A stretch of DNA of 64,000 nt from Desulfosudaceae bacterium. Its GTDB lineage: Bacteria > Desulfobacterota > Desulfobacteria > Desulfobacterales > Desulfosudaceae. The notes beneath the pieces were generated by a model. It was not told the origin of the DNA and made no database searches. It saw only the letters and a list, made by a program, of their open reading frames with translations. Made by a program: the position numbers and the translations under genes. Location: contig CAXXDV010000003.1 in the NCBI GenBank assembly GCA_963674745.2, forward strand, positions 1,984,001 through 2,048,000, in the 5' to 3' direction. Positions 31,996 to 63,547 of the stretch are shown piece by piece. The stretch's first letter is position 1. Each line of letters starts with the position of its first letter.

Positions 31996-32071
31996 GCCGA
32001 GGTAGCTCAGTCGGTAGAGCAGGGGACTGAAAATCCCCGTGTCGGCAGTTCGATTCTGTCCCTCGGCACCA
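31996..32071 (+). tRNA. tRNA-Phe(GAA)
   Basis: 76 nt GCCGAGGTAGCTCAGTCGGTAGAGCAGGGGACTGAAAATCCCCGTGTCGGCAGTTCGATTCTGTCCCTCGGCACCA; cloverleaf, GAA anticodon, encoded CCA. Confidence 0.97.
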
Positions 32072-32091
32072 GCAATAAATATAACTATATC

Positions 32092-32125
32092 AATGGCTTA
32101 CTTCAAAGTAGCGGTAAGCCATTTT
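32092..32125 (+). terminator. Intrinsic terminator after tRNA-Phe
   Basis: AATGGCTTAC...GTAAGCCATT hairpin followed by a short T run. Confidence 0.6.
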
Positions 32126-32406
32126 CATTGGTGCCCTGCCCCGTGTGTGAAAAATATTCGGGCTTGTGAAAATAGGCAAACGATCAACTCTCGCACAGAC
32201 TTTATTTCTTTAATCATTTCAAGCTAACCTTGTATTTTGCAAAAGCAACTAGATCGGAGTATGTGATCTTTTATCCCCGGATCCGACTGTTCAGTCACCC
32301 CCTGAACATGTAGCGGAAAAGACTGACGTCTGAGAACATTTCACCCAAAACGATTAAAAATCACTTCACATAAATCGACAAAAATTCTTTTATAAACAGC
32401 ACAACC

Positions 32407-33012
32407 TTAAAGTGAATTCAAATATGTTTGAATGATTTTTTGTGATCCGACGCCACAACTGATAATTGACCTGAAGGCCTCTTCAGCCGAAACAGAAACC
32501 GGATGGACAAATTCTTTTTTTAAATGAAAAATATAACCGGTTGTCGGGTTGGGGCCGGTGGGGACAAAAACGGTATAAGTTCCATCTGGATGCTGTTCCG
32601 TTATAAATCCCGTCATTAACGTATTGTTTTCAAATGCGCGGACCATTGCCACAGACGAGAACGGCAGCCTGCCTTTTCCCAGAAACTGCATAACCGTTGT
32701 TTTTATCAAGGCGTATCCCGGCGCTCTGCTCATTATCCGTTTTTCAAAATTCTCCTGAATAAAAGTCCCTAATTTTGTCTTAACCAGAATACCGACCAGA
32801 AAACATCCGGTTAATATCAGCATTACGGCAAAGATGTCGGCTACAACTTCCATGAGATGAAAATGGGAAACCAGTAAGGTGGTAAAAGGCTGAATCAGGT
32901 TCGTGATTAACCTGAACAGCCACATAAATACAAAAATAAAAAGCGCCAGCGGCATGACGACCACAACACCACCAAGAATGGATGTCGTGACAAACGATTT
33001 TAGATTACCCAT
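32407..33012 (-). CDS. DUF502 family membrane protein
   Basis: Two TM segments; VFVPTGPNPTTG; AFRSIISCG. Confidence 0.85.
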   Translation of the reverse strand: MGNLKSFVTTSILGGVVVVMPLALFIFVFMWLFRLITNLIQPFTTLLVSHFHLMEVVADIFAVMLILTGCFLVGILVKTKLGTFIQENFEKRIMSRAPGYALIKTTVMQFLGKGRLPFSSVAMVRAFENNTLMTGFITEQHPDGTYTVFVPTGPNPTTGYIFHLKKEFVHPVSVSAEEAFRSIISCGVGSQKIIQTYLNSL

Positions 33013-33107
33013 TTCAAGCCGCCTGTTTCCGCAATTGATCCGCTAAATAATTGATAACTCATTGAATCCCCTTCCTACGATATTCGCTTTTGATTTCACA
33101 AAAATCG

Positions 33108-34586
33108 TTAAAAGACTGTATTCATACAGTTAATTAGCTTTTCGATTTCGACTGTTGCTATGCCGGAATTGATATCGGACATGGCATAGGGAATGACCAG
33201 TTCGTTATTATGAATTATCGCACCGCAGGAATAAACGACATTGGGTACATATCCCTCGCGTTCTTTCTCATGTGGGGCAAGTAACGGCTCATCAAGACGG
33301 GCGATAATTTTTGAAGGTTTATCAAGATCAAGCAGCATGGCGCTGATGCAATATTGACGCATAGGCCCGACACCGTGGGTGAGCACGAGCCAACCTTTGT
33401 CGGTCTCCAGGGGGGAACCGCAGTTACCGATCTGAAAGAACTCCCAGGGATATTCAGGTTCCTGGATGATTTGGGACTTCTGCCAGAAATGGATGTTATC
33501 TGAGAACATGATATGATTATTTTCACCGTCCTGGCGTGAGAGCATCACATAACGGCCGTTAATTTTCCGCGGGAAAAGTGCCATGCCTTTATTTTGTACG
33601 GCTTTGCCGTTGAGTGTGAGAATGTTGAATGTGATGAAATCTTTGGTTTCAATCAACTGCGGTAAAATCGTAATGCCATTATAAGCGGTATAGGTAGCAT
33701 AGTAAATGACCTCTCCGTTGTCATTGAAAAATTGCACGAACCGGGCATCTTCAATACCCCTGCTTTCGTTTTTTGAAACGGGAAAGATCACCCGTTCGGA
33801 TATGGGATGATCGGGGTGAAAGCTCACCTCGTAATTGGAATCCGCAAGCCAGCACATGACCTCGAAGGTTCTGTTCTGGAACGCTTCAGAAAATAGCGGC
33901 TTTGTGCGAAGTTGTTTGATTATCTCTATTAATTCATTATAAGTAAAATCCTCCGGCAGCTGGTTAAGAATATGGGCGGTTATCTCATTGGCGGCCCCCA
34001 TCTCGTTAAGTTTTCGTTGGAACGGATTGCGTTTGTAAACCGCGTCTACCTGGAGATCCGGGGTTTCCACAAAATCACTGATCGGGTCGAAGAAGAATTT
34101 GTTGTTTCGGTCAAGGATACCGCTACGAAAGACAATGGACGAAATATGGCCTTCGCCGGTTGCCCGCAGACTCATGACAAAACGCAGGCTGCCTTTTTTC
34201 AAGTGGCTCTGATCAGGATGGGGGATGATGGAAGGGTTAAAAAGGGCTGCCGATTCAATGGAGTATTCCTTTGTAAAGTAAGCGCCGATGAGCGCCTTTT
34301 GGACATCGCTGAGGATTGTTTTCTGGGGAATATAATCCTTCACCTCCGTTAAGTGCTGCTCAAAAATGTGTTCGATATTTTCGTGTCGTCCGGAAAAGTC
34401 GGCCATTATTTGTGAGATTAAATTATTAGCCGTTGTTTCAGGCAAGCTCATTATCCGGGCAATTATTTTTGCTATACGATACCCTTCTTCGGGAACATTA
34501 AGCTGAGTGATCACCCGTGAGGTATCCCCTGTGATCTTAATCGCCTTTCTTTTAACGTTCAGCTTCTGATTCATTTTTACCTGCAT
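33108..34586 (-). CDS. Glycoside hydrolase family 130 protein (long form)
   Basis: EYSIESAALFNPS, SLRATGEGHISSI, GIEDARF, QIGNCGSP, GYVPNVVYSCG. Start taken at MQVK (34586). Confidence 0.85.
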   Translation of the reverse strand: MQVKMNQKLNVKRKAIKITGDTSRVITQLNVPEEGYRIAKIIARIMSLPETTANNLISQIMADFSGRHENIEHIFEQHLTEVKDYIPQKTILSDVQKALIGAYFTKEYSIESAALFNPSIIPHPDQSHLKKGSLRFVMSLRATGEGHISSIVFRSGILDRNNKFFFDPISDFVETPDLQVDAVYKRNPFQRKLNEMGAANEITAHILNQLPEDFTYNELIEIIKQLRTKPLFSEAFQNRTFEVMCWLADSNYEVSFHPDHPISERVIFPVSKNESRGIEDARFVQFFNDNGEVIYYATYTAYNGITILPQLIETKDFITFNILTLNGKAVQNKGMALFPRKINGRYVMLSRQDGENNHIMFSDNIHFWQKSQIIQEPEYPWEFFQIGNCGSPLETDKGWLVLTHGVGPMRQYCISAMLLDLDKPSKIIARLDEPLLAPHEKEREGYVPNVVYSCGAIIHNNELVIPYAMSDINSGIATVEIEKLINCMNTVF

Positions 34587-34629
34587 ATACGCTGTGTCCT
34601 TATTGTTGGTTGAATTTTTATAAAATAAT

Positions 34630-35571
34630 TTACAACGGCGGCCGGGAAGCCGTGAGACAAAGCGAAACCAGATCTTCAATCACGGCTGTGCCAACGCACA
34701 TGACCGTATCTGCGCCGCCCCAGTATATTTTCACCGTACCGTCCTTTTCCGGAACAGCACCGCAGGTAAAAACCACATTGGGGACATAACCAGTTGTCTC
34801 CCAGGGATCTTCAGGCTGCAATATCCATTGATCGGAAACACCGATGATCTTGGCTGGATCATCAAGGTCATGCAGGGCCGCGCCGAGTCGATACACGGCT
34901 CCGGCCATTGTTTTAAAGACGCCATGATAAATATGAAGCCAGCCCTGGCCGGTTTTAAACGGCGGCGCGCCGGGTCCGATTTTCATTTCATCCCAGTGAT
35001 AGGCCAGCGGCCTCATAATTACCCGGGAATTGCCCCAGTGCATCAGGTCCGGAGAATATGAAATCCAGATCGACCAGGGCAAAATTTCCGAATGCGGCCG
35101 GTCCAGGCGCGCATAGCGGCCGCCGAACTTTTCAGGAAAAATGACCACGTTGCGAAGGTCTGCCTGGGTGATCAGGGCAATACGTTCCACTGTTTCAAAA
35201 TCCCGGGTGCGCGCCAGGGCAATCCGCACGCCGTGACGGGAATAGGCGCTATAGGTCAGCAGGTACTCATCCTCTACCGGCGAAATCCTCAGGTCTTCGA
35301 CGCCGAACGCTTCATATTCGGCAAAGACCCTGTCTGTTGAAGGTATCAGAAAGGGTTCGGGATGAACCGTAAATGAAAATCCATCCTCGCTGTCGGCCCT
35401 GCCAATAATGGAACGCCCGTTCATCAGATGGGATCTGAAAAGCATGATGTAACGATCATTGTGTTTGACAACGCCGGCGTTGTGGACAGTCGCAACCGGA
35501 TACGGCACATCTTTTCGGGTCAGGATGGGGTTCTTTTTAAAACGAGTTATTATTGGGTTCTGGATTTTCAA
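34630..35571 (-). CDS. Glycoside hydrolase family 130 (beta-mannoside phosphorylase-like)
   Basis: NPIL, VHNAG, GVEDLRI, KIGPGAPP, IYHGV, GYVPNVVFTCG, YWGGAD. Confidence 0.88.
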   Translation of the reverse strand: MKIQNPIITRFKKNPILTRKDVPYPVATVHNAGVVKHNDRYIMLFRSHLMNGRSIIGRADSEDGFSFTVHPEPFLIPSTDRVFAEYEAFGVEDLRISPVEDEYLLTYSAYSRHGVRIALARTRDFETVERIALITQADLRNVVIFPEKFGGRYARLDRPHSEILPWSIWISYSPDLMHWGNSRVIMRPLAYHWDEMKIGPGAPPFKTGQGWLHIYHGVFKTMAGAVYRLGAALHDLDDPAKIIGVSDQWILQPEDPWETTGYVPNVVFTCGAVPEKDGTVKIYWGGADTVMCVGTAVIEDLVSLCLTASRPPL

Positions 35572-36587
35572 AGGGGTCTATCCTGTAAAATCATTTCATA
35601 GAGGTTTATGTATTCATCAACCATGCGATCGACCGTGAAATGCCGTTCAACATGGCGACGGCAGTCTGCACGGTCAATCTCTTCAATATGTTCAACCGCC
35701 TTAATGGCCTCGTTTACATTGTCGACCAAAAAACCGTTTTTTCCGTTTTCAATCAATTCAGGCATACTGCCCCTGTCAAAGGCGATCACGGGCGTACCGC
35801 AGGCCATGGATTCGATAACGGACAGACCAAAAGGCTCATCAAATTGTATGGGGTGCAACAGCGCGCGCGCGTTGCCGAGCAGCCGGTTTCGCTCAACCGG
35901 TCCGACGCTGCCGACATAAACCACCATATTATTGTCGATGTGAGGGGCGACATACTGATCATAGTAAGCCTCGTCCTGGATAATACCTGCCAGTATCAGT
36001 TTTTTATGGCAGGCCCTGGCGATTTCGATCGCTTGCCGCACGCCCTTGTCATGGTGAATGCGCCCAAAAAAAAGCAGATAATCATCCGGAGCAGACTGAA
36101 AATCAAACTGCCTGATGTCAATGCCATGATGAATGGTTCTGATATAATCCAGATCCGGCGACCGGTCGGCATCGCTGATGGAAACATAGTAAGTTTTACC
36201 GTTGTACTTTTTATAAACAGGCAAAATCCCGGGCGATGAAAAGCCGTGAATGGTGGTCACCACCGGGGTGGTGGTCAGGCCGGTATACGTCAGCGGCAGA
36301 AAATCAAAATTGTTATGGATAATGTCAAACTTGTCGGCATGATCAAATAGTTCTGAAATGTGCAGGCACTCCCAGACTTTTGGTATGAGTGAGCGGTCTT
36401 CCTCATAGCCCCGCGGACAGACGGCTTGCAGCGTGCCGCTGGTCTTTGAATCCGCGGTCGCGAACAAGGTGACCTCATGACCGCGTGTTACCAGCCCTTC
36501 GGTTAAAAGGGAAGCCACGCTTTCCCAGGGGCCATAATGACGTGGGGGCGTTCGCCAGGCAATGGGTGAGAGCATCGCGATGTGCAT
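35568..36587 (-). CDS. Glycosyltransferase family 4
   Basis: PPRHYGPWE, FGRIHHDKG, EPFGLSVIESMACGTPV. Confidence 0.9.
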   Translation of the reverse strand: MHIAMLSPIAWRTPPRHYGPWESVASLLTEGLVTRGHEVTLFATADSKTSGTLQAVCPRGYEEDRSLIPKVWECLHISELFDHADKFDIIHNNFDFLPLTYTGLTTTPVVTTIHGFSSPGILPVYKKYNGKTYYVSISDADRSPDLDYIRTIHHGIDIRQFDFQSAPDDYLLFFGRIHHDKGVRQAIEIARACHKKLILAGIIQDEAYYDQYVAPHIDNNMVVYVGSVGPVERNRLLGNARALLHPIQFDEPFGLSVIESMACGTPVIAFDRGSMPELIENGKNGFLVDNVNEAIKAVEHIEEIDRADCRRHVERHFTVDRMVDEYINLYEMILQDRPL

Positions 36588-36601
36588 GGCTGATCCTTTA
36601 C

Positions 36602-38947
36602 CTAATTGGCTTTCGAGAACGATGCCGATTTAAGGACTTCGTCGGCATAGAGATGCTGCAAAGATATCAGCGACAGCAGCCAGGCAAGGGACGATTCAGC
36701 ACCCTCATTCTGGTTAATGCCGTCCGCCATCAAGCCATCCCGGCAGCCGCCGGTCTTGGGATCATAGAGCGGCATATTCAGGTCATTTTGTCCGAGAAAC
36801 CAGTTAAAACACATGACGGCGTTGTCGAACCAGGTGTGGTCACGGGTGATATTAAACGCTTCAATACAGGCTTCAATCATGGCATTGGCTTCGACGGGCT
36901 GCTGGTCGAAACGTGCTCTATGACCGCCTTTTTCATACCATCCGTTGCTGCCGATGGGCACAAAGTGATTATCTTCGGTTTGGATGGCAAGCAGCCACTT
37001 GAGGGCGTTAAGTCCCATATCGATCATGTCGCTTCTTTGCATCCTTTTGCCGGACACCAGCAGGGCTTGGGGCAGTTTGCCGTTAGCATAGTTCAACGCG
37101 TTTTCAAGCCAGGGCCAATCGACTGTTCCATTGTGTACGAACTGATTAAAAAGTCTGTCGGCAAGTGCGTCACGGACCCTGCGCACATCACTGTCGCCGG
37201 AAAATTTATGCAGGTAAGCATTTATGCCTACTAGAGAAAAAGCCATAGCGCGAGGCGAATAAAAACCCTCGGCCGCTCTCAACGCCTTGTTGAAAAGGGT
37301 TGTGCTCATTGCCAGATGCCCTGGATCGTCGAGAAAAGCCACTGCTTTACCCAGACACCAGATCGCCCTGCCATGGGCATCCTCTGATCCGACATCCTCC
37401 ATCCACTGCCGTGAATACGTCATGAAATTGCGAAAGCGCCCATTCTTTTCATTATAAGCATACAGAAGAAATCCAAGATAATGGCCGCTTAGAGAATCAA
37501 GTCCAAAACCGTTTGTCGGCAGGTATTTCTGTCCCATTGCGACAACCAGCAGGGCTCTGGCATTATCATCGGTGCAATAGCCATGAGCGCGATCAGGAAT
37601 GGTATGGTTGGCATGTTGCAGGATGCCGGTATCATCGGTAAACGCTTTCAGGTGATCGAGCTTGATCTCCGGGAGCTCGAAATTTGTGATGGCCTTGATG
37701 TTTTCCACATAGGAATAACGGGGACGGGGGTTTTGGGTGCGATTTTGCCGCACTTCACTGAAAACCTGGAGGTATTTTTGGGCTACCGCTTTCCAAACCG
37801 CTTCACGGCTGAAGGTATAAGCCTTTTTACGCATGGCGTGCCGTTCCACATCGTTGTCAAAAAGTTCGATAATTTGTCCGGCGATGGCATCCGGATTGCG
37901 AAAGGGTACAATCCGGCCCCGGCCTTCAGCCAGCATCTCAACGGCATACCAGTATGGTGTTGAGATGACGGCTTTGCCTGTGCCCATGGCATAGGCAAGC
38001 GTCCCTGAGGAAATCTGGGATTCTTCAAGATAAGGGGTTACGTAAATATCGGCAATGCCGAGAAACTCGCACAACTCTTCTAGTTCAACAAAACGATTTT
38101 GAAAAATCACATTTTCGCCGATGTCGAGTTTGCGCACGAGCTGCTGCAGCATGATACGGTATTCGTCGCCATGAGACTTTAAGATATGCGGGTGTGTCGC
38201 GCCCAGAATGATATAGACGACATCAGGATGTTTTTTGATGACCATGGGAAGCGCCTGCAGCACATTCTCTATACCCTTATTCGGGGAGAGCAGGCCGAAT
38301 GTGAGCAGCACCTTTTTGCCTTCCACCCTGAACTTATCTTTGTAGTAGCTTGAATCAATAAACGGCGTATCCGGAATGCCATGATGAATAAAAGCGATTT
38401 TCTCCTCGGGTACTGCATAGACATCCCTGAGAAAATCGGATGCCTTGAGACTCATCACCACCAGTTTATCAGACAGATCGGACAGTTTACACATGACGTC
38501 ACGATATTCAGGAGCAGGATCCTTCAGAATCGTATGCAATGTTGTTACGACCGGCATGCGCAGATCACCTAACAGTTTAAGCAGGTGACTGCCGGCCGGA
38601 CCGCCGAAAATTCCGTATTCATGCTGTACGCAGACAATGTCCGTCTGGCTGATATTAATAAATTGAGCGGCAATACCGTAATCGGCCAATTTGTTCTGGT
38701 TGATCTCAAATCGCACTTTTTTCGGATATAGATATCCCTCAAGTTTATCATTCATGGCAGCCGCCCAGCATTTAATTCCGGGCGTTTGCGCCGATAAAGC
38801 CTCGACCAGGTCGGTTGTGAAAGTAGCGATACCGCACTGGCGGGGCAGATAGTTACCTATTACGGCAACTGATTCGATTCCCTCGTAACATTTAATACCA
38901 GATGTCATAACAATTGCTGCCTTTTTGCTTTTACGTTGATCTTTCAT
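36602..38947 (-). CDS. Glycosyltransferase family 4 fused to a C-terminal glycosidase-like domain
   Basis: PRQCGIATFT, QHEYGIFGG, FGLLSPNKGIE, SGTLAYA; then GYCTDDNARAL, SEDAHGR, FDQQP, NEGAES. Confidence 0.85.
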   Translation of the reverse strand: MKDQRKSKKAAIVMTSGIKCYEGIESVAVIGNYLPRQCGIATFTTDLVEALSAQTPGIKCWAAAMNDKLEGYLYPKKVRFEINQNKLADYGIAAQFINISQTDIVCVQHEYGIFGGPAGSHLLKLLGDLRMPVVTTLHTILKDPAPEYRDVMCKLSDLSDKLVVMSLKASDFLRDVYAVPEEKIAFIHHGIPDTPFIDSSYYKDKFRVEGKKVLLTFGLLSPNKGIENVLQALPMVIKKHPDVVYIILGATHPHILKSHGDEYRIMLQQLVRKLDIGENVIFQNRFVELEELCEFLGIADIYVTPYLEESQISSGTLAYAMGTGKAVISTPYWYAVEMLAEGRGRIVPFRNPDAIAGQIIELFDNDVERHAMRKKAYTFSREAVWKAVAQKYLQVFSEVRQNRTQNPRPRYSYVENIKAITNFELPEIKLDHLKAFTDDTGILQHANHTIPDRAHGYCTDDNARALLVVAMGQKYLPTNGFGLDSLSGHYLGFLLYAYNEKNGRFRNFMTYSRQWMEDVGSEDAHGRAIWCLGKAVAFLDDPGHLAMSTTLFNKALRAAEGFYSPRAMAFSLVGINAYLHKFSGDSDVRRVRDALADRLFNQFVHNGTVDWPWLENALNYANGKLPQALLVSGKRMQRSDMIDMGLNALKWLLAIQTEDNHFVPIGSNGWYEKGGHRARFDQQPVEANAMIEACIEAFNITRDHTWFDNAVMCFNWFLGQNDLNMPLYDPKTGGCRDGLMADGINQNEGAESSLAWLLSLISLQHLYADEVLKSASFSKAN

Positions 38948-39062
38948 TTGTCAAAATCGATGGCACTTTATCCTTTTTCCCCTTTCGTTTCTCTTTCAGC
39001 GTTTGTTTACCTTTTTTCTGTTCTTCACGTTTGCCTTTATCCCGTTTTCCTTTGTCGCCCAT
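38931..39062 (-). CDS. Small Lys-rich basic protein (43 aa)
   Basis: Below the ORF-track cutoff. AAGGAAACCAA-ATG; MGDKGKRDKGKREEQKKGKQTLKEKRKGKKDKVPSILTNERST*. Fills the gap between clsB and the GT4 fusion in the same orientation. Confidence 0.55.
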   Translation of the reverse strand: MGDKGKRDKGKREEQKKGKQTLKEKRKGKKDKVPSILTNERST

Positions 39063-39093
39063 TTGGTTTCCTTTTCTTTATGAATTATTGTTT

Positions 39094-40260
39094 TTATCCA
39101 TGGCCGGACGGTTCACCCGGGGCATACCCGGCTATTCCTGTCATGAATCTCACAACCCAATAGCTTAGCCAGCTTGTCAGGCGGAACCGAAATGACTTCG
39201 AGCTCAATTTGTTCCCGAAAATCCGTCGAGCGCCGTCCTTGATTGCCTGCTCCATGCTATACTTTAATTCTTTGGCAAAATCTTCATCATCAACAACGAC
39301 ATTTGCTTCCAAAGAAAGCAGCAGGCTGAGCGGATCAAGATTTGAAGATCCCACTGTAGCCCAATGATTATCAATCACGGCAACTTTGGCGTGCATCATA
39401 CTCTTGTGATATTCGTAGATCTCAATCCCGGCATCGAAAAAATCGCCATACAAGGCATGTGAAGCATAATGCAGCAGGCGATGATCCATTTTGCCCTGCA
39501 ACAGCAAAACCACCCGGACGCCACGCCCAGACGCATCCAAAAGCGCCCGCCGGAAATTCAATCCCGGGAAAAAGTAGGCATTGGCCAGAATGATTTCAAA
39601 TTGTGCCTGTTCAATTGCCAAAAGATAGGCCTCTTCAATATCCCGGCGATGGCGGATGTTATTCCGTATCATAAAACCAGAGCGCATCCGGCCCATGGCT
39701 TCGACTGAAGGGACTTGTCTGTAATCTTCCCGACCCAGGCCGGGAAGCATGCGGGACCAGGTCACTCGCGCCCACAACCGGCGGGAAGAGGTATAAATTT
39801 TTGTCACCAGCGGCCCCTCCACACGGACAGCGTAGTCATGACGAATCGGTGTTTGATCAGGCATATTCATATCATCGATTATATTAATCCCTCCGACAAA
39901 CGCCATCTTCCGGTCCACAACCAATACTTTGCGGTGCAAGCGCCGCAACCGCCGGCGTCGCAACGTCCAGGGCGATGTCCTAGGCCGGAACTTCAATACC
40001 ATTACGCCAGCCGCTTCCATGTAATCCATCATGGTTTTCGGAAAACGCTTCGAACCGAATCCATCCATTAAAACGTGGACTTTTACGCCACGCAAGGCCG
40101 CCCGCCTGAGCGCATCCGCAATGCGCTGCCCGGTATTGTCATTTTCGAAAATATAGCTTTCCAGGTAAATCTCACGCTCCGCCAGGTAAAACGCCGCTTC
40201 GATCGCCGGAAAATAAGCTTCGCCGTTTTGTAACAGGGTAATGTGATTGTTTGGAATCAT
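39094..40260 (-). CDS. clsB: Cardiolipin synthase B
   Basis: LLQNGEAYFP, two HKD motifs (LHRKVLVVD, HAKVAVID), GSSNLDPLSLLLSLEAN. Confidence 0.88.
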   Translation of the reverse strand: MIPNNHITLLQNGEAYFPAIEAAFYLAEREIYLESYIFENDNTGQRIADALRRAALRGVKVHVLMDGFGSKRFPKTMMDYMEAAGVMVLKFRPRTSPWTLRRRRLRRLHRKVLVVDRKMAFVGGINIIDDMNMPDQTPIRHDYAVRVEGPLVTKIYTSSRRLWARVTWSRMLPGLGREDYRQVPSVEAMGRMRSGFMIRNNIRHRRDIEEAYLLAIEQAQFEIILANAYFFPGLNFRRALLDASGRGVRVVLLLQGKMDHRLLHYASHALYGDFFDAGIEIYEYHKSMMHAKVAVIDNHWATVGSSNLDPLSLLLSLEANVVVDDEDFAKELKYSMEQAIKDGARRIFGNKLSSKSFRFRLTSWLSYWVVRFMTGIAGYAPGEPSGHG

Positions 40261-40334
40261 ACGGAGCAAAACAGGTCCATCCTTTTTCTGAATTGGCGCT
40301 GCCTGTCGGAAATATCAAGCGAACGTCTGGTCGG

Positions 40335-40556
40335 TTACTGCGGCTTGGTGTAGGGGTGGTTTTTGTGGTACAGACGCAGTTGAGAAGCAAACCAGCCCAG
40401 GACAATTCCAATTGATAAAATCAAAAGCATCACCAATGCCCTGGACATTGACAACGTCCAAAATAAAAACGTCAGTTCTACCGTCGTGACATTCTGGATG
40501 ATGAATAATACCACCATCCCAATCAGTGTTAAGCTAAGGATAAATTTGTAGTTCAT
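40335..40556 (-). CDS. LapA/DUF1049-family small membrane protein
   Basis: GAGGAG RBS; FIIQN...V.LTFLFW pattern with two TM helices. Confidence 0.75.
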   Translation of the reverse strand: MNYKFILSLTLIGMVVLFIIQNVTTVELTFLFWTLSMSRALVMLLILSIGIVLGWFASQLRLYHKNHPYTKPQ

Positions 40557-40722
40557 TGTTATCTCCTCTATATTTTACGAAGGAACCTCAACTGTCGCGG
40601 CCGTTCACAGCTCACCAGCCACAAGCGATCACTCATGCCATATTCCGTGATCACGGACCGGGCAAAACACAATTCCTGCGTTTGCTTTGGCCTGCTGTTA
40701 ATCGTTCATCGGGTTTCGAAAT

Positions 40723-52873: not shown

Positions 52874-52878
52874 TTTTT

Positions 52879-54681: not shown

Positions 54682-54994
54682 GGCCTCAATGGTTCCTGTC
54701 CTTATTGTCGCCTCGGGCCTCGGAGACTGTGTCACAATTGTTTATTCAAAAAAAGCGACTTCCTAATTTGTCGTATAACGAACTTTCTTTGAATTTTAAT
54801 GGTAAAACCATTCCGGAAAACACTCTTTTTCCGGCTTGTTTTGAATTGCGACACAGTCTCCTCGACCCGGGGGCCAGAAAAACCGATTATATTCCTCTAT
54901 GTGCCTTCGGGGCCTGTATACCCATTTTCGTTCTGTTTCCCGGGCGCGAAGGCTCACTTGACCCCTCGAGTCCTTGAATCCTTGGCTCCTCTCG

Positions 54995-55822
54995 TTACGG
55001 CATAAACACCGGCACACTCCCCACAGCCTGCACCAGTTTCTGACCTTTGGGTGAAAACACGTAGTTGATAAAATCCAACGTAATCCCTTCCGGCCAGCCG
55101 TTGGTAAACATGTACAGGGGGCGGCTGACGCCATACTGACCACTTATGGTTGTCGTTTCGGTTCCCAGAACGCCGTCCACCTTCACCTGTTTGAGGGAAT
55201 CATTTAAGTAAGCCAGGCCGATATACCCGATGGCACCGGTGGTCTGGCCGACCGTCTGGACGGCGGCGCCATTGGAGGCAACCGTCAGCGCGCTGGGTAC
55301 AACCCGCTCTTTTTTCAACACAATATCACCCCAGACTTCATACGTCCCGGAAGAGCTGTCTCTTGAAACAACAACGATTTTTTCGTTTTTACCGCCGACG
55401 TCCTTCCAGTTGGTGATTTCCCCTTTATATATGGCCCCCAGTTGATTGATGGACAAATCCGATACCGGGTTGGCGGGATGGACCACCGGAACAATGCAAT
55501 CCATGGCAATTCTGAAAGGCACCGGATATATACCCTTGTCGCAGGCCATTTTGATCTCTTTGTCCTTGATAAACCGGGAGGCATTGGCAATATCGGTAGT
55601 ACCGTCAATAATGGCCTTGATACCGTTGCCGGAGCCGCCGCCGGAAAGGGAGACAGACACGTTTCTTTCCTGCATATAGGCTTCGGCGATTTTCTGAGCA
55701 GCCGGTAGCACGGTCGTCGACCCTTTGATGACCAGCTGTTCCGCCATGATCGGGACAACAGCAATGAACGCCGCCAGGGTTAGAACAATTGCGAATGTTA
55801 ATTTTTTTAATGTGTTTTTCAT
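54995..55822 (-). CDS. pstS: Phosphate ABC transporter substrate-binding protein
   Basis: IKGSTTV, GGGSGNG, DIANASR, SRDSSSGT, SRPLYMFT. Confidence 0.93.
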   Translation of the reverse strand: MKNTLKKLTFAIVLTLAAFIAVVPIMAEQLVIKGSTTVLPAAQKIAEAYMQERNVSVSLSGGGSGNGIKAIIDGTTDIANASRFIKDKEIKMACDKGIYPVPFRIAMDCIVPVVHPANPVSDLSINQLGAIYKGEITNWKDVGGKNEKIVVVSRDSSSGTYEVWGDIVLKKERVVPSALTVASNGAAVQTVGQTTGAIGYIGLAYLNDSLKQVKVDGVLGTETTTISGQYGVSRPLYMFTNGWPEGITLDFINYVFSPKGQKLVQAVGSVPVFMP

Positions 55823-55937: not shown

Positions 55938-56161
55938 ATAAACCGGGCCGAATAACGGACCTGAAATCAACAGACAGCGCACCTGATAAGATTTCAGACG
56001 CCTGCATTATTGATACTTTACTGTAAATATTGAAAATCTGCCTGATTAAAACAAACGATTCCAGATGAACCAAATTGTTTTACATGCCAGAAGGAGGCGT
56101 ATTATGCCGGAAGGAAATTATGAGAATCTAATGTCTGAGATAAAAAGCTCGGAGGCGGTTT

Positions 56162-56206
56162 CTGAAAATCCCCGTGTCGGCAGTTCGATTCCGCCCCTCG
56201 GCACAA
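56162..56206 (+). repeat. att-like copy of the tRNA-Phe 3' part (45 bp, 3 mismatches)
   Basis: CTGAAAATCCCCGTGTCGGCAGTTCGATTCCGCCCCTCGGCACAA, preceded by the same AAGCTCGGAGGCGGTTT as at 48295. Confidence 0.92.
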
Positions 56207-56490
56207 GCAAAAAACATTGCCATATCAAATGCTTATCAAATATCATGGGGCAAGCCTTTTTTCATTGGTGCCCTGCCCCTGTGTAAATCTGTGTGTGGAT
56301 CCGAGCATGTGATCTTTGATCACCAGGTCCGGCGGTTCACTGGTTTACCGGCTCTATGAGATTTTGAGTTATACTTTTTGTATTATTTGCTGGTTCAAAA
56401 AAAATATTGGCTAACTCTCCTGATCACCGATAACGTGAATAGAAGCTTTTCTTTCTTTCCTGTCTTACAGCCAAATAATCTTGACATGAA

Positions 56491-56558: not shown

Positions 56559-58028
56559 ATGCTGCAACCAAATACAAACCAGGAATCAAACATCCAACCC
56601 AATAACCCGGCGCAAAATGATGCTTCCGAATTAGAACGCGTTTTTCAGTTACAGAAGACGGCTTTCTTAAAGAACCCCCTTCCAGATGCGGAGGAACGTA
56701 TTGGCCATCTAAAAAGGCTAAAAAGAAGTCTGGTTAAATATAAAAATGAAATCGCGGACGCACTGAACAATGATTTCGGCAACCGGTGCAGAGATGAAAC
56801 ATTTCTGGCTGAACTGATCGGCGCAATTGAAGGAATTAATTATAACATACGACATGTCAAAAAATGGATGAAACCTTCCCGACGCATGCCTGGAATGATG
56901 TACATGCCGGCTTCAGCTAAAGTTTATTATCAGCCCCTGGGAGTCATCGGCATTATCGCACCCTGGAACTACCCGGTTTATCTTTCCATCGGCGGGCCAC
57001 TGGTATGCGCCCTGTCCGCAGGAAACAGAGCCGTTATGCGTATGAGCCGGTGTACGCCGCAAACCGCCGCCGTGCTGAAAAAGCTTATCGGAGAAACATT
57101 TAATGAAGATCATGTAACGCTATATGCAGGTGACGATGTTTCAGGAAGACAGTTTACCACCATACCATGGGATCATATGATATTCACGGGTTCAACAGCA
57201 GCCGGGAAAGAAGTGATGCGTGCCGCAGCAGATAATCTTACACCGGTAACCCTTGAACTGGGTGGAAAATCACCGGCCATCATCAGCCATGACGTACCAA
57301 TCAAAGACGCTTCCGAGCGGATCGCCTGGGGAAAAATGCTCAATTCCGGTCAGACCTGTGTCGCACCTGACTACGTACTCTGTCCAGAGCATCGAATATC
57401 CGATTTCATCGAATCCTTTCGTCAATCTGTTCAACGCATGTATCCAACGCTAAAAGGCAATAAAGACTATACCAGTGTGGAAAACGATCAGCAATATGGA
57501 CATCTGCAGGAACTTCTGGAAGATGCCCGGAAAAAAGGAGCAAAAATAATCGTTATCAATCCGGCTGATGAGGATTTTTCCGGTTCGCGCAAAATACCGG
57601 TTCACCTGGTACTCAACGCCACTGACGAAATGGCGCTTTTACAAAAAGAAATTTTCGGACCGATATTGCCGATTATTCCCTATAACACCCTGGAAGAGGC
57701 CATTCGTTACATAAACGACCGTCCGCGTCCCCTGGCCCTTTACTTCTTTGATTACAATCGGGGCAATGCCGAGTACGTTATCAAAAACACCCATTCCGGC
57801 GGCGTGCTGATCAACGATACCATGGTCCACGTACCTCAGGATGCCATGCCTTTCGGCGGTATTGGTCAATCGGGTATGGGGCAATACCACGGGCACGCCG
57901 GGTTTCTGGCCTTTTCTAAAGAAAAGGGGGTGTTGTTCAAACCGAAATTCAATAGCGGTAAACTGATCTATCCGCCATACGGCAGATATGTTCACAAGCT
58001 GGTTTATAAATTACTGCTCGGTGAGTGA
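56559..58028 (+). CDS. Aldehyde dehydrogenase (coniferyl aldehyde dehydrogenase / ALDH3-like)
   Basis: QPLGVIGIIAPWNYP, FTGST, TLELGGKSP, NSGQTCVAPDY, EIFGP, PFGGIGQSGMGQYHG. Confidence 0.92.
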   Translation: MLQPNTNQESNIQPNNPAQNDASELERVFQLQKTAFLKNPLPDAEERIGHLKRLKRSLVKYKNEIADALNNDFGNRCRDETFLAELIGAIEGINYNIRHVKKWMKPSRRMPGMMYMPASAKVYYQPLGVIGIIAPWNYPVYLSIGGPLVCALSAGNRAVMRMSRCTPQTAAVLKKLIGETFNEDHVTLYAGDDVSGRQFTTIPWDHMIFTGSTAAGKEVMRAAADNLTPVTLELGGKSPAIISHDVPIKDASERIAWGKMLNSGQTCVAPDYVLCPEHRISDFIESFRQSVQRMYPTLKGNKDYTSVENDQQYGHLQELLEDARKKGAKIIVINPADEDFSGSRKIPVHLVLNATDEMALLQKEIFGPILPIIPYNTLEEAIRYINDRPRPLALYFFDYNRGNAEYVIKNTHSGGVLINDTMVHVPQDAMPFGGIGQSGMGQYHGHAGFLAFSKEKGVLFKPKFNSGKLIYPPYGRYVHKLVYKLLLGE

Positions 58029-58123: not shown

Positions 58124-60892
58124 TCATTCGATTTTATCAATACGAACGGCACAGGCCTTATATTCCGCCGTCAGCGTGATCGGATCAAAAACCGGGTTGG
58201 TAAGAAAATTGGCATTACCTTCCCGAAAATGAAAAGCCATCCATACCAGCCCCTTGGGTACTTCTGCGGTCACCCGCGCTTTGACACGGACTTCTCCCCG
58301 ACGGGACTTGACCTGAATGAGTTCACCGTCGGCAATATTCATGGCGGCCGCGTCATCAAATGAGATATCTGCCGTTTCCTCTCCAAGCAGATCATTTAAT
58401 CCTTCACAGCGCCCGGTTTGGGTTCGAGTATGATAATGATACAATCTTCTGCCCGTGCTCAACACCAGTGGGTAGGTTTCATCCGGGATCTCGGCTGGCG
58501 GCGTCCAGTCCACAGGGATCAACGCGCCCCTGCCACGGGTGAAGTTTCCGGACTGATGAAGTACAGGTGTTCCCGGATGATCTTCGGTCGGGCACGGCCA
58601 CTGCAATCCGTCACCCTCAAGGCGATAGTATTTGATCCCGGCCAGGGCAGGCGCCAGCACCGATATTTCGTTATCCCAGATTTCCTGAGCACTATTGGAC
58701 GTCCAATCCTGACCCATACGACGGGCGATTTCCTTGAATATCAACCAGTTGGGCATTGCCTGACCCGGTGCCTGACTGACGGTTCTGACCCGGTTGACCC
58801 GGCGCTCGCTGTTGGTAAAGGTTCCGTCATTTTCACTCCAAGCGGCCGCGGGCAGCACCACGTGGGCAAACCGGGTGGTCTCGGTCTGAAAGATATCCTG
58901 ACAGACCAGAAACTGGGCTGAGGCCAACTCATGTTCCACTTTATGAATGTCCGGCTCGGTGCTGGCCAGGTTTTCACCGAAGATGTAAAAAGCCTTCACT
59001 TTCCCTGACAACAGGCCTTCCATCATCTGTGGAATCATCAGGCCGTTTTTATCGGGCAGGTTTGAGACATTCCAGAACTTCTCGAATTTCTGCCGGGATT
59101 TTTCGTCGATAACGGTCTGATAGCCCGGGAATACGTTGGGAAGCGCGCCCATATCGCAGGCACCCTGAACGTTATTCTGTCCCCTCAAGGGATTAACTCC
59201 GCCGCAGGCCACGCCCATATTGCCCAGCAGCATCTGCAGATTTGCAGTGGACACAACGTTGTTACGGCCGCAAGTATGCTCGGTAATGCCCAGTGTATAG
59301 CAGAGCATGGCAGGTTTTACCGACACCAGTAGTCGGACCGTGTCATACAGCATCTGCTCGGAAATTCCGCAAATCGGGGCGACCCGCTCCGGTGGATATT
59401 CGCTGACTTTTTCCTTCAGCTCCTGAAAATTTTCGGTTCTTAATTCAACAAAATCTCTGTCATACAAGTTGTCTCGAATCAGGATATGCATCAGACCGTT
59501 TAAAAAAGCGATGTCGCTGCCCACATGAATAGGCACATGCAGGTCCGCAAAATCCACCAGACGATGGGCTCTGGGATCCACGACAATAAGTTTGGCGCCC
59601 TTCTGAACGGCATTTTTCAAAAAAGTCGATGCTACTGGATGGGCTTCGGTCATGTTGGACCCGATCACTAAAAACATTTTCGCCCGTGAAAATTCCTCAA
59701 AAGAGTTGGTCATGGCCCCGGAACCGAAAGATGCCGCCAGACCGGCGACTGTGGGGGCATGTCATGTACGGGCGCAGTGATCGATATTATTGGTCTTGAA
59801 CACCGCGCGAAAAAGTTTTTGCATCTGGTAGGAATCTTCGCTGATGCTCCTGGCGCAGCTTACACCAGCAATCGCGTCTGGCCCGTCAGTGGCAATAATC
59901 TGCTTAAACCTGTCAGCGACCAGGTTGAGGGCTTCATCCCAGGAAGATTCCCTGAATTTTCCGTTTTCCCGAATCAGCGGTGTGGTCAACCGTTCTTCGG
60001 AATAAATGAAATCATAGCCGAAACGACCTTTAACGCACAGTCGGCCTCTGTTTGGCCGACCGTTTTCCACCCCGTTCACCTTGACGATGATACCGTCCTT
60101 TACATGCAGTTCCTGCTGGCACCCCACGCCACAGTATGGACAAGTCGTCCGGACTTTTTCCACCTCCCAGGGACGCCATTTGTACACCGCCTTCTTTTCC
60201 ACCAGCGCCCCTACGGGACAGGCCTGAATACATTCACCACAAAAAACACAATTAGAATCCGCCAGTGTTTGATTGTTTCCGGTTACGATTTTTTCCTGAC
60301 CGTCCTGAGTACCGAAATCAATAACCCGATTGACCTGTACCTCGTTACAGGCGCTGACACACCTACCACACAGGATACAGCGGGAATGATCCCTTATAAT
60401 CAGTGGGTTTACGTCTTCTTTAGGCAGGGACGACCGATCGGCATAAGGTCTTTTCCCCTTTACCTGATAACGATAGAGAAGATCCTGCAATCGGCAGTCT
60501 CCCCAGACAGGGCAAAGATCATCTGTCTGTTCATATTCCCCTGCCGTTAGCTGAAAAGTAGTCCAATCAGATACGCCCTTGCTGGAAGCCGTGCAATTGT
60601 GGTTACCTGATGCGATCATGGACTCCAGGGTTTTTCTTCTAGCGGCTACCACTTTGGGTGATTCGGTTTTAACCAACATGCCTGCCTCGCAGGGTGTATT
60701 ACAGGCGGTGACCAGTTCAGCCTGCCCATGAATTTCCACCACGCAGATTTTGCATCTTGCACCGGGCGTAGTACCTTCCAGATAGCAAAGTGTGGGAATA
60801 TCTATACCATGTTCTTTTGCTACCTCAAGAATCGTCTGGCCGGAAGAAAAATTAATCTCCCGGCCGTTTAGAACCATTGTAGAATCGGACAT
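58124..60892 (-). CDS. fdhF: Selenocysteine-containing formate dehydrogenase alpha subunit (FdhF-type with N-terminal Fe-S domains), 922 aa
   Basis: The two track ORFs are in frame across TGA 59762-59764, reading [27 protein letters not shown]. Also IPTLC, CILCGRC, CVFCGECIQACP, TTCPYCGVGC, LRGQNNVQGACDMG. Confidence 0.92.
59733..59749 (-). promoter_or_regulatory. Bacterial SECIS hairpin
   Basis: GUCGCC-GGUCU-GGCGGC stem-loop 12 nt downstream of the UGA, with an fdhF-like GGUCU apex. Confidence 0.75.
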
Positions 60893-60982
60893 GCGACTTC
60901 TCCCGTAATATTAAAGAGATTTGTATGTGTTTATCCGGATCAGCCGGACGAAACTTCAAAACAAGGGAGATATCAAATGTAT

Positions 60983-61010
60983 TTCGTTATGTCAATATTG
61001 GCATAATGAA
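60983..61010. promoter_or_regulatory. ModE-type operator upstream of the FDH gene
   Basis: TTCGTTATGTCAATATTGGCATAATGAA; same motif and spacing as 56491-56516. Confidence 0.7.
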
Positions 61011-61050
61011 TAGAAACAAAAAATTTGTGCGGGGATTCTTGAAAAACAGA

Positions 61051-61434
61051 TCAGTCTTTTGGGGCGGATTTTAATCGGGGAGCAAATTTTTCATCAAAAA
61101 ACGTGTCAGCCTGTTTATTCACCTGTTGATGAAGGACGCGGAATCTTTTTATAAGAGACTGGGCCAACGGCGTTAAAGCTGATCCCCCCCCGGATGCGCC
61201 ACCGGCATTTCTGATTAAAAGCGGATACCCCAGGGCTTCTTCAGTGGTTCTGATTTTTCCCCAGATGGCCCTGTATCCCATCTTCAACTCTTTAGCAGCC
61301 GCGTTGATGGAACCACATTTTTCAATCGTGCTCAGGATACGGAAACGGCCCAGCCCGAAAATCACTTTTCCCTGATTGTCCTCTATCCATATTTTGGAAC
61401 GGATATGGAACACCTTTTTTTCTTTTTTTGTCAT
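61051..61434 (-). CDS. ModE-like winged-helix regulator (DNA-binding domain only)
   Basis: IRSKIWIE...IFGLGRFRIL...GSINAAAKELKMGYRAIWGKI...GGASGGGSALT; 127 aa, no TOBE domain. Confidence 0.85.
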   Translation of the reverse strand: MTKKEKKVFHIRSKIWIEDNQGKVIFGLGRFRILSTIEKCGSINAAAKELKMGYRAIWGKIRTTEEALGYPLLIRNAGGASGGGSALTPLAQSLIKRFRVLHQQVNKQADTFFDEKFAPRLKSAPKD

Positions 61435-61845
61435 GCATAACTCCTGTCGACCAAAGGTTGTACCTTTTGTTCTGGTCGTAGAGATATAGTGTGGTTAAAA
61501 ACAATATTAAACCAAGTTTACTTGTGTTCCTATCTCAATTTTACGTAATTTATTGATACGGCAATGGATAGCAAAGAAGCAACAGGTCAGTCAATATGTT
61601 ATCGGTTATATTTCCGACGTCAACTTACGGAAAAATTAGGGGTTCAGAAGGCTCGGAAGTTCTGACTTCTAATCCGTAGGTCGGACGATACAATTGTGAT
61701 CCAAGGCAACGCTAAGCAAAAAAATTTAACAAAACAATATGCGGTAATATGCGATTATGCTGCCAGAGTTGTACAAAAACTCGTTTAATATTCGAAAAAC
61801 TCGCATAACTTTCAGTAACATACTAATTTTACTTAAAAACCAACC

Positions 61846-61864
61846 ATTCTGTCCCTCGGCACCA
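61846..61864 (+). repeat. 19-bp copy of the tRNA-Phe 3' terminus
   Basis: ATTCTGTCCCTCGGCACCA is identical to 32053-32071. Confidence 0.85.
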
Positions 61865-61883
61865 TAAAAGATAAAGCTAGATT

Positions 61884-61918
61884 AAAGGGTTATCCGCTGC
61901 GTCGGTTAACCCTTTTTT
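61884..61918 (+). terminator. Intrinsic terminator, possibly bidirectional
   Basis: AAAGGGTTA...TAACCCTTTTTT. Confidence 0.6.
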
Positions 61919-62001
61919 CGTTGAAAATGACAAATTGTGCCCATGAGACATTTTCGATTGTTCTTCGAGGTAGGACTGATACATGTATTTTATCAGCAGT
62001 G

Positions 62002-62673
62002 TTAATACGCCATCAGTCTCTGTGCCAGCCGATGCAGTTCCGGGTTGGCCAATGCGACGACTTTTTTCTTGACCGCCCGCGAATAATATTCTTTTTCGGT
62101 TTTGGTCAAAGGCAATCCCTCCAGCCGTTTTTTGAACAGCTCTTTCTGCTTGGGGGAAAACACCTGCGAAAGCGCGTATTCCAGAGAAAGCGCTTCGTGT
62201 TTTTCTGTTTGCCGGCGGCTTTTTTCGGCATCCTTTTCGAAATACAGCTCGAATGCCTTCTTCAGACGCAACGGATGGAACTCCAGCCCGTTCAGTTTGA
62301 AACTGTTTCCGGATGCCAATTCTTTGCGCAGTTGTTTCAGACCTGCTTCTTCATTTTCAGAAAGCATCTCTTTTAGCGGCCTCATCCAGGAAAAGGACAG
62401 GTGGCGGAGGTCGTAGAGCGTAAACGAGACCTGCAACAGAGCATGAAAGGCTTTTTTCTGCTCTTTATTATTGAGGTGTTCCAGGACTCGTTCATATGCG
62501 AATCGGAAATCACTAGCAGCATTGACGAGCAGTACCGGAAACCCTTCCCATAATCTCTTGTCCCTGCTTTTTACCACTTCGGCGAGGGTCTGGTTGACAT
62601 CGAATTCTTCGATTGCCTCCAGAAGGGGCAAACCCAATTGTGACAACCTTTCATATAATGACTTTTCCGTCAT
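62002..62673 (-). CDS. Hypothetical protein coupled to the nucleotidyltransferase (possible antitoxin/regulator)
   Basis: ATGA overlap with the upstream gene; C-terminal LSQVFSPKQKELF...LTKTEKEYYSRAVKKK. Confidence 0.7.
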   Translation of the reverse strand: MTEKSLYERLSQLGLPLLEAIEEFDVNQTLAEVVKSRDKRLWEGFPVLLVNAASDFRFAYERVLEHLNNKEQKKAFHALLQVSFTLYDLRHLSFSWMRPLKEMLSENEEAGLKQLRKELASGNSFKLNGLEFHPLRLKKAFELYFEKDAEKSRRQTEKHEALSLEYALSQVFSPKQKELFKKRLEGLPLTKTEKEYYSRAVKKKVVALANPELHRLAQRLMAY

Positions 62674-63254
62674 AAGACTTTCTCCTCTTTAAGGAGTTCG
62701 ATAAATCGGTCGATGTGGACAGCTATTCGTGCTTCAGCGATATCATAACTGGCAAGCTCACGATAATGATTCACCAATCGTTCGATATCGATTCGGTGTC
62801 GTATGGATTTCATCAGCATCAGGCAATCCTCGGAATCAACTGTGGTACCGCGCATCAATTTACTTGCGATCAGGTCGTATTCATTCAAAATGCCGATATA
62901 GAGCCGGCTGTATTCCTTCAGCAGGGTGTGGTTACCCGGTTCAAGCGGTGATTCCAGCAGTTCCGTCGTATGGATCCGGTTTCCTTCAAAAAGGTCGAAC
63001 CTAAAAATGTCTCCTTTCCGCTGCCATCCGCTCCCGGTAACCTGCTCGTAACCAAGCGTTTTGAGCACCTTGATCAGGTAGCCATGTTCACCCGTCCTGG
63101 GGACCATGAAATCAACATCTTTGGTGGATGGTTTTACTTGAAGCAGGGTCATTGCCGTTCCACCGCACGCAACGAGGTGAATCTTCCTTTTCAGGAAGCG
63201 GTTCCATTGCCCCATAACATCGAGCAAGGTCTGTTTGTTGATCCTGTATTCCAT
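62670..63254 (-). CDS. Nucleotidyltransferase-fold protein (DUF6036/AbiEii-like)
   Basis: ACGGTAM...STKDVDF motif; DLIASKLMRG...D. Confidence 0.75.
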   Translation of the reverse strand: MEYRINKQTLLDVMGQWNRFLKRKIHLVACGGTAMTLLQVKPSTKDVDFMVPRTGEHGYLIKVLKTLGYEQVTGSGWQRKGDIFRFDLFEGNRIHTTELLESPLEPGNHTLLKEYSRLYIGILNEYDLIASKLMRGTTVDSEDCLMLMKSIRHRIDIERLVNHYRELASYDIAEARIAVHIDRFIELLKEEKVL

Positions 63255-63502
63255 AACATTGTACCGATTAGTTCAATTATTTGTATAATTATATACAATA
63301 AGTTGATCATATTTGTACAGCATTTTTTGAAAAAACAATATGGCAGAGGAGTGATAGTCATTGTGCCCAGACTGTGCCTAAATTGTGACCGTCAGAAACA
63401 AACGTTAACAAATAAAGACAAACAAAACCAAAAATACACAGCTTTTTTAAATATTATCAACCTATTGAAAAAACGGATAAATCGTATTTTCTCATAATTC
63501 GG

Positions 63503-63547
63503 CTGGAAATCCCCGTGTCGGCAGTTCGATTCTGCTCCTCGGTACCA
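63503..63547 (+). repeat. Degenerate att-like copy of the tRNA-Phe 3' part (45 bp, 4 mismatches)
   Basis: CTGGAAATCCCCGTGTCGGCAGTTCGATTCTGCTCCTCGGTACCA. Confidence 0.88.

Follow-up and report, generated by a model that had tools for sequence, protein, structure and literature searches.

Genomic islands that have lost their integration and transfer genes and kept their attachment (att) sites, termed cis-mobilizable elements (CIMEs), accumulate by tandem accretion; among relatives of ICESt1 and ICESt3 they are described with 1-13 kb of cargo or none, microCIMEs spanning 130-220 bp (PMC5704250, PMC7563491). For Dehalococcoides, a CIME nature was proposed for the 15 ssrA islands that lack an integration module (PMC3146451). 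The integrase of pathogenicity island (PAI) II at leuX of Escherichia coli 536 is reported, at second hand, to excise PAI V at pheV, and the same sources describe integrase-less asn islands in Klebsiella and predict that such cross-talk rescues integrase-less islands (PMC4891358, PMC2704930). The Islander survey, which required an integrase in each tandem member, gives 4 tandems of three or more islands in 2168 genomes (PMC4383910). Our literature search found no paper combining an integrase-less genomic island, a tRNA, action in trans and excision, and none on Desulfobacterales genomic islands with a tRNA integrase and direct repeats. Here we analyze a 64-kb stretch (the window, to which all array positions refer) of the genome of a Desulfosudaceae bacterium (G000), in which four integrase-less segments follow a tRNA-Phe gene in tandem. 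Probably, this is a CIME-type accretion array with occasional helper-driven movement and not an integron-like one.

The only tRNA gene detected in the window by ARAGORN is tRNA-Phe(GAA). The array is real and well bounded: the tRNA gene and four copies of its 3' part enclose segments 1 to 4, which measure 16,285, 7,850, 5,658 and 1,683 bp. The positions and mismatch counts given for these copies in an initial annotation of the window were reproduced, as was the start of the 45-bp copies in the anticodon loop, at tRNA position 32. The tRNA gene itself (att0) and att1 are identical across 53 bp. In the terms of Islander, the site holds three anticodon (A) copies and one junction (J) copy. The annotation had also described decay that rises with distance from the tRNA. 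Judged from the copies themselves, this gradient is only partly decay, because the 19-bp copy (att3) represents another crossover subsite and two of the three changes in att2 match a natural tRNA-Phe 3' allele found in a relative (L024). The change within the overlap of att4 is true decay.

The reported lack of mobility genes was borne out. Pfam revealed no integrase, transposase, relaxase or phage family in the 32 open reading frames (ORFs) of the array (34 ORFs were scanned), none of the 21 PF00589 matches of the genome lies within it, and a genome-wide scan with a hidden Markov model (HMM) of the family-A integrase described below had no match there. A tblastn search with the tRNA-Ala and tmRNA integrases gave nothing convincing. 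One weak trace was seen with nhmmer, a relic of an integrase C-terminus on the minus strand of segment 3 at ~56357-56441 (E 0.0025 with the arms, 0.012 without; not significant with the protein HMM). A match of the C-terminal protein HMM to the array was rejected as an integrase remnant; it covered arm-encoded residues only. By Pfam, the segments also lack a replication module (primase/helicase), and G000 as a whole yielded no family of large serine recombinases.

Homologous ends had been described for segments 1-3. This is true of the left ends (75-76%), whereas the right ends are not homologous to one another: segment 1 has a full family-A end, segment 2 a ~20-bp stub, and segment 3 a family-A relic followed by a family-B end. 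An HMM built from seven other family-A right ends, the segment 1 copy being left out, matched 48180-48309 (E 8.6e-17) and, weakly, 61608-61664 (E 0.00099 within the array, 0.17 genome-wide); no match was obtained at the right end of segment 2. The right end of segment 1 is 74-78% identical to a tRNA-Phe right end of a congener. The family-B end shares 90-92% over 66-72 bp with the ends before both tRNA-Leu(GAG) copies. In segment 4, the left end shares 75% over 65 bp with a family-C left end that bears an integrase (L169), and the right end is 69-72% identical to Phe-array ends in L020, L138, L148, L157 and L176. The terminator after att3 resembles the tRNA-Phe terminators of both congeners, too; it may be native or derive from family C, the family-C left end (L169) matching it as well. 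By these homologies, the segment ends stem from three island families, A, B and C, and not from one cassette family. Only segment 1 retains both A ends, each with a single arm, so that a single family keeping both ends in several segments, as first proposed, is an overstatement; from either end of this segment, the one closest to the tRNA, an arm repeat has gone. G000 yielded no family-C integrase (best match 22%), nor was a family-B integrase identified there.

Downstream tRNA 3' copies stand in tandem at seven tRNAs of G000, and only at tRNA-Ala(GGC), in the first segment, are they adjoined by a tyrosine integrase. The Ala enzyme displays the residues R-K-H-R-H-Y (by inspection). Immediately upstream of it lies an HTH_17 xis-like gene, and the island has primase-like genes, which also occur in two foreign autonomous elements. 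With this integrase as query, 38 relatives were recovered, for the most part from records whose titles name Desulfobacterota, Magnetococcales and Acidobacteria; they sit at tRNA-Phe (5) and at Arg, Lys, Thr, Ala, Met and Leu tRNAs. In family A, a 12-bp arm repeat (GTGTG-GA type) overlaps the last integrase codons or the stop, and the same arm is present at both ends. A position weight matrix (PWM) of the arm was derived from 35 of the 38 foreign integrase loci, mixed in register and hence conservative. Its five best matches genome-wide are the left ends at Ala, Arg(CCT), Phe att1, Arg(ACG) and Phe att2, each 48-73 bp past the att site. In a quick tree of 39 integrases, with 14 of 36 inner branches open, 22 target changes were counted for 15 tRNA labels (minimum 14), and labels were still clustered (0 of 200 shuffles as low); the G000 Ala enzyme and two other Ala enzymes fell into a weakly supported group with five Phe enzymes. 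Family A thus apparently changes its tRNA target with ease. A search of main-text literature found no paper on this integrase family, a listing in supplementary tables remaining possible, and family A apparently constitutes an undescribed, tRNA-switching island family. The Ala xis-int pair is the sole candidate helper for family-A ends found in G000.

The autonomous family-A island at tRNA-Ala(GGC) (G000:C1:1188418-1258018, L001-L004) spans 70 kb. Besides xis-int and the primase-like pair it carries a type I restriction-modification system, a ThiF/E2/ubiquitin-like cluster and an ssb-nuclease-UvrD-radC block common to G007, and is followed by a 3-kb integrase-less TonB-receptor unit. No relaxase or type IV secretion system (T4SS) family was found in its ORFs at E 1e-8, many of which are unassigned; relaxases were not searched genome-wide. 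Two family-A integrase elements elsewhere (L047:4596-4672, L069:11241-11317) abut tRNA-Arg in an orientation opposite to all others.

Integrase loss is routine in family A. A tRNA-end-plus-arm pattern was searched in 401 genomes of the order, and 24 matched. Four of these were set aside, namely L076, rejected as a false match, the G000 locus itself and the right ends L084 and L086. The last two had been considered as empty mini-elements and were rejected as plain right ends with a chance upstream motif. Of the remaining 20 foreign left ends four were unreadable at contig ends; among the 16 readable ones, four hold a full integrase, one a frameshifted integrase, eight a C-terminal stub and three none (11/16 stub or none). 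Recombination between the left and a right arm pair could delete the integrase while leaving attL intact; the product would consist of attL followed by a copy of a right end. At tRNA-Phe of G232 (L113), the left arms pass directly into the spacer of a right end, after which comes a damaged att site; together they form an empty element of ~190 bp. The congener G002 has at tRNA-Ala an integrase-less cassette of 3.5 kb. Its left end copies the right-end spacer (100/106 identical) and closes in a tRNA-Arg(CCT) core, broken off one base past the overlap. Elements with a doubled arm set ahead of the integrase exist as well (L039). In segment 2, the DNA behind the arms is related to the left end (z 7.3) and the right end (z 6.2) of the tRNA-Arg(CCT) island (z scores against 200 shuffles). 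An integrase origin of the ~120 bp after the arms was rejected (z about 0 against integrase C-termini). The Phe left ends look like eroded versions of such an arm-to-arm deletion product.

The cargo of segment 2, a complete pst-pho operon, has one paralogue in G000. It lies at tRNA-Arg(CCT) (C1:1851919-1858728) in the same orientation, with 77-88% DNA identity, directly behind a left end homologous to that of segment 2. In an 11-row tree, the two operons are sisters (Shimodaira-Hasegawa-like approximate likelihood ratio test, SH-aLRT, 100) inside the genus clade. phoR was present in 34 of 41 genomes searched, and both congeners hold pst at a core locus; at that place (C1:151300-151950), G000 has only GC-rich tandem palindromic repeats. 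Neither pst island gave a family-A integrase or PF00589 match. On the simplest reading, an integrase-less element likely took up the native pst-pho operon and was later retargeted between tRNAs. It is weakened by the lack of alignment between the two pst islands over the 150 bp from pseudo-core to phoR (z 0.1). Small palindromic repeats lie within the Phe operon (50570-50700 and 54707-54877, with 39 and 3 other genomic matches), both missing from the corresponding places of the Arg(CCT) copy; such host-type repeats suggest long residence of the Phe copy. The island at tRNA-Arg(CCT) (C1:1851524-1925399, L005-L008) is a 74-kb integrase-less one with both family-A arm pairs intact, which combines the second pst-pho operon with a PHO4 transporter, two alkaline phosphatases, a phytase, a purple acid phosphatase and TonB systems.

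In X1/X2, two sequencing runs of one sample in which a relative (about 91-95%) is present, position 48366 is connected with 61902 in one contig, 27 other letters lying in between, so that segment 1 stands directly before the distal terminator. Contigs of segments 2, 3 and 4 were also present (12-13.7x against 10.2x). The joint reflects a permuted array or two strains that differ in content, and either way there is variation at att boundaries. The runs X5/X6 contained the array as exact contigs, broken at the att repeats, while the small-share runs X3 and X4 held only related cargo or the Phe left end of another organism. The exact Phe right-end pattern gave 0 metagenome matches; a looser one gave 45 loci, several with more att copies and family-C ends downstream, none with G000 cargo (E 1e-8 over 110 bp). 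Several of 61 genomes carry Phe 3' copies, the Phe flanks of the congeners being unlike G000, and the full left end of segment 2 is absent from the other genomes of the 401 searched. In L022:687-751, L141, L158, L163 and L113:845-900, a related short insertion before the T-loop splits a tRNA-Phe att copy. The relocation of pst-pho together with the X1/X2 joint points to movement after integrase loss, likely in at least one lineage. The initial annotation was right on several points: the same ends occur elsewhere in the genome, including at Ala, Arg(CCT), Arg(ACG) and Leu(GAG), an autonomous integrase-bearing relative exists at tRNA-Ala, and array order or content differs in the X1/X2 relative.

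We therefore favor, as probable, a CIME-type accretion array that a helper set in motion now and then. Members of the three island families likely integrated repeatedly, site-specifically and in tandem at tRNA-Phe, those of family A at the anticodon loop, in line with the known use of such sites by tyrosine integrases and with tandem accretion at tRNAs, both of which the annotation had rightly invoked. Their integrase genes were then likely deleted, by stepwise truncation or, as we infer, by recombination of left with right arms. One left-end lineage, whose homology was shown above, would have served three tRNA-Phe cargoes and the 74-kb phosphorus island at Arg(CCT). This lineage likely captured the host pst-pho operon, and its retargeting from Arg(CCT) to Phe may have occurred by a swap of att core DNA. 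Any movement would require a family-A integrase in cis, from a tandem neighbor, or in trans, with the Ala xis-int as a candidate. The present array would be mostly immobilised, given that segment 1 alone has both A ends, with single arms. Mobilisation in trans and repeated integrase loss, set out at first as alternatives, do not exclude each other: loss is routine, and one or more integrase-less lineages likely moved afterwards. An integron-like, chronologically ordered array, the other part of that proposal, is unsupported, the pattern being of the CIME or accretion kind.

Several observations weigh against this reading. The Phe pseudo-cores alone score 16-18/30, within the random range, and the left end of segment 1 compares with that of Arg(CCT) at a z of only 2.8 (3 of 200 shuffles; window start shifted). 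The unaligned 150 bp before phoR belong here too. An integrase-bearing parent with the shared left end is possible, and shared ends alone are no proof of movement after loss, because segment 3 has its weak second-arm and integrase relics behind the pseudo-core. G002, with the youngest cassette, gave no family-A integrase match with the query used. The X1 joint could come from a second strain merely without segments 2-4. Among the joints listed for X5/X6 there was no circle or empty-site joint, although contigs of ~10x and a 45-bp att longer than the assembly word could not show excision. Finally, a search of G000 for VirB4 (PF03135) and coupling-protein (PF02534) families, which would suggest a route between cells, found neither.

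A more ambitious reading, a system of helper and cassettes, is conceivable, if doubtful. Here, one integrase lineage would read the arm repeats only, the target tRNA would be set by a swappable attP DNA module, and arm-to-arm stripping would leave working ends, so that cassettes capturing even core host operons such as pst-pho would be shuffled among tRNA-Arg, -Ala and -Phe by the resident integrase.

It is unlikely that the segments are non-autonomous cassettes of one dedicated family, which a resident integrase actively mobilises in trans and builds into an integron-like ordered array. An intact xis-int of the same family with near-identical arm repeats does reside at tRNA-Ala, one left-end lineage is seen with several cargoes at two tRNAs, the related strain is arranged differently, G002 holds a young cassette with intact ends, and cross-talk of integrases at different tRNAs is on record (PMC4891358). 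However, three types of end are mixed, with A-type right arms gone from segments 2 and 3 and single arms in segment 1, and family-B and family-C ends have no identified integrase in G000. The full left end is found in no other of the 401 genomes, and integrase stubs of all lengths indicate ordinary decay.

Less probable again is a history in which every segment arrived with an integrase of its own, which it then lost where it stood, and stayed put ever after, shared ends being inherited from an integrase-bearing parent with an extended left end. In the two pst islands, two independent deletions would have had to end within ~25 bp of the same place before phoR, and the X1 joint would be unexplained unless a second strain was present, although the weak relic in segment 3, the stubs at 8 of the 16 readable foreign left ends, integrase elements with doubled arms (L039) and the eroded ends all suit such a history. 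That homologous recombination by the host, acting on the att copies (45-55 bp) and the end repeats (~130 bp), and no integrase, permuted and retargeted the segments once the first integrations had taken place is very improbable, for despite the identity of att0 and att1 over 53 bp, the 94% identity of left and right spacers in the congener cassette and the existence of arm-to-arm fusions, the congener relic ends one base past the 7-bp overlap, as an integrase crossover predicts, and repeats this short are poor RecA substrates.

The features of the array are compiled in Table 1. Cargo is unrelated between segments, as first noted, and amounts to 2-14 genes per segment with their own regulators; in segment 3, genes lie on both strands. 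In the formate dehydrogenase alpha gene an in-frame TGA (59762-59764) is followed just downstream by a hairpin and likely encodes selenocysteine; interpretation of the split gene as a pseudogene was rejected, the in-frame TGA explaining the split. A paralogue, 50-60% identical, is located on the 132-kb contig C2. The gene pair of segment 4, to which no PHROG or NCBIfam family was assigned, is possibly toxin-antitoxin-like. For the cargo of segment 1, no tRNA lay within the 12-20 kb stretches at the five foreign loci taken from 12 foreign matches.

Table 1. Features of the tRNA-Phe array (window positions).
Feature	Position	Strand	Remarks
tRNA-Phe(GAA), target gene and array attL (att0)	31996..32071	+	ARAGORN
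Predicted 7-bp crossover overlap CTGAAAA	32027-32033		Within tRNA-Phe
Segment 1 left end, family A	32072..32300	+	75% to segment 2 left end; terminator hairpin 32092-32123; one arm repeat 32143-32151 (second lost); ~120 bp non-integrase spacer, then pseudo-core ~32265
Segment 1 cargo	32407..48030	-	Pfam, NCBIfam; DUF502, two GH130 phosphorylase-like, two GT4 glycosyltransferases, ClsB cardiolipin synthase, two hypothetical, two SPFH, B12-radical SAM, ABM monooxygenase, KH protein, PAS-sigma54 activator
Segment 1 right end, family A	48180..48311	+	One imperfect arm repeat 48187-48195
att1, 45-bp tRNA 3' copy	48312..48356	+	45/45
Segment 2 left end, family A	48357..48600	+	Two arm repeats 48429-48452, PWM score 25.8; spacer homologous to left end and right-end spacer of tRNA-Arg(CCT) island; pseudo-core ~48562-48573
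Segment 2 cargo, complete pstS-pstC-pstA-pstB-phoU-phoB-phoR operon	48721..55822	-	
Segment 2 right end, ~20-bp family-A stub beside core	56141..56161	+	No arm repeats found
att2, 45-bp copy	56162..56206	+	3 mismatches, none in overlap
Segment 3 left end, family A	56207..56441	+	Arms 56279-56302 (PWM 22.4); spacer deleted; pseudo-core 56311-56339, behind it weak relics of second arm pair and integrase C-terminus
Segment 3 cargo, aldehyde dehydrogenase	56559..58028	+	Pfam, NCBIfam
Segment 3 cargo, formate dehydrogenase alpha and ModE-type regulator fragment	58124..61434	-	Regulator fragment 61051-61434
Relic family-A right end, then tRNA-Arg(TCT) anticodon-arm core	61608..61690	+	57 bp, no arms; core 24/30
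Family-B right end	61731..61845	+	ATATGCG repeats; closes with 19-bp att3
att3, tRNA 3' end	61846..61864	+	19/19; different crossover subsite (T-stem/acceptor)
Segment 4 left end, family C	61865..61945	+	Terminator and one TGTGCCC arm
Segment 4 cargo, DUF6036 nucleotidyltransferase-like gene and hypothetical partner	62002..63254	-	Pfam
Segment 4 right end, family C	63362..63502	+	Three TGTG(A/C)C(C/T) repeats
att4, 45-bp copy	63503..63547	+	4 mismatches, one within 7-bp overlap

Small tandem units were also seen at other RNA genes of G000. Two units of 1.5 kb that are nearly identical (93%) and hold a Gp49/HTH toxin-antitoxin-like pair terminate in 3' copies of tRNA-SeC (C3:1004486-1007500, L010), and two single-gene units of 1.9 kb (Fic; AAA_14-DUF4143) with family-B right ends stand at tRNA-Leu(GAG) (C3:2485349-2489204, L012). 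The family-B end type occurs inside the Phe arrays of G000 and G232 as well. Two genes before tRNA-Phe, the window encodes a protein of 669 aa in which short acidic repeats are numerous and to which no Pfam family was assigned (28802-30811, minus strand); a similar repeat region occupies the same place in G002.

Tools that demand an integrase per island skip integrase-less islands, which leaves their share of genomes and their mobility out of view. The genome analyzed here offers a compact test case: it combines one intact integrase with several relatives that lack one and sit at other tRNAs, the ends differing in known arms. Should this integrase accept any core from an anticodon loop, it would amount to a DNA-retargetable integration tool. 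The segments, likely worn-down members of their families, were likely moved from time to time by the enzyme of a relative, and such movement is a recognized route of genome growth; what stands out is the host phosphate-uptake operon, likely taken over by one island, which suggests that the only high-affinity phosphate uptake and PhoBR operons of a host can become island cargo.

Compared with the tandems of Islander (PMC4383910), no member of the Phe array has its own integrase. The Dehalococcoides islands are likewise arranged in tandem behind one RNA gene and carry metabolic cargo (PMC3146451), but in that description depend on the serine integrase DsiB and a single target, whereas the present family has a tyrosine integrase, uses sites in the anticodon loop and finds its targets in many tRNAs. 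Tycheposons, as described in 10.1101/2020.12.28.424599, resemble the autonomous relatives in family A in having a tyrosine integrase, xis, primase/helicase and cargo without conjugation genes, and share with the array tandem units split by partial tRNAs and phosphate cargo. They have their own integrase, however, with one integrase clade per tRNA. The Ala island alone has a tRNA integrase of its own, the four segments lack one as well as the replication module without conjugation or capsid genes that marks tycheposons, and family A, switching tRNAs, does not fall into tRNA-specific clades in the quick tree. CALINs, attC-site clusters without an integron integrase, are, according to PMC11389934, integrase-less arrays that a helper can mobilise in trans. 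Their cassettes are small, mostly single-gene and in one orientation, whereas the units here are multi-gene operons, bounded, as far as seen, by 3' copies of a tRNA together with arm repeats. In E. coli 536, experiments are reported to have shown the leuX integrase acting on the pheV island (PMC4891358, PMC2704930), while in the present array such cross-talk would be a candidate route of movement. The array works like accretion of CIMEs (PMC5704250, PMC7563491), though perhaps not in the strict sense, since no conjugation genes were seen in the parents. As in CIMEs, the segments lost integration genes and piled up at one target gene, with att sites kept at least in part. Recombination and transfer genes were absent in the Pfam, PF00589 and family HMM scans, and derivation by deletion from an integrase-bearing element is indicated by the Ala-island arms, the foreign stubs and the weak segment 3 relic. 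attL and attR are kept in segments 1 and 4 (arms eroded, att4 overlap mutated); segments 2 and 3 keep the cores and have lost right arms. The array differs from the CIMEs described there in that its parents show no relaxase or T4SS by Pfam, that four integrase-less units fill the site without a functional neighbor even beside the tRNA, and that one end lineage is found at two different tRNAs. Novel aspects are the island family itself, the readiness with which it seems to change tRNA, a plausible route to clean integrase loss and the likely relocation of a host pst-pho operon.

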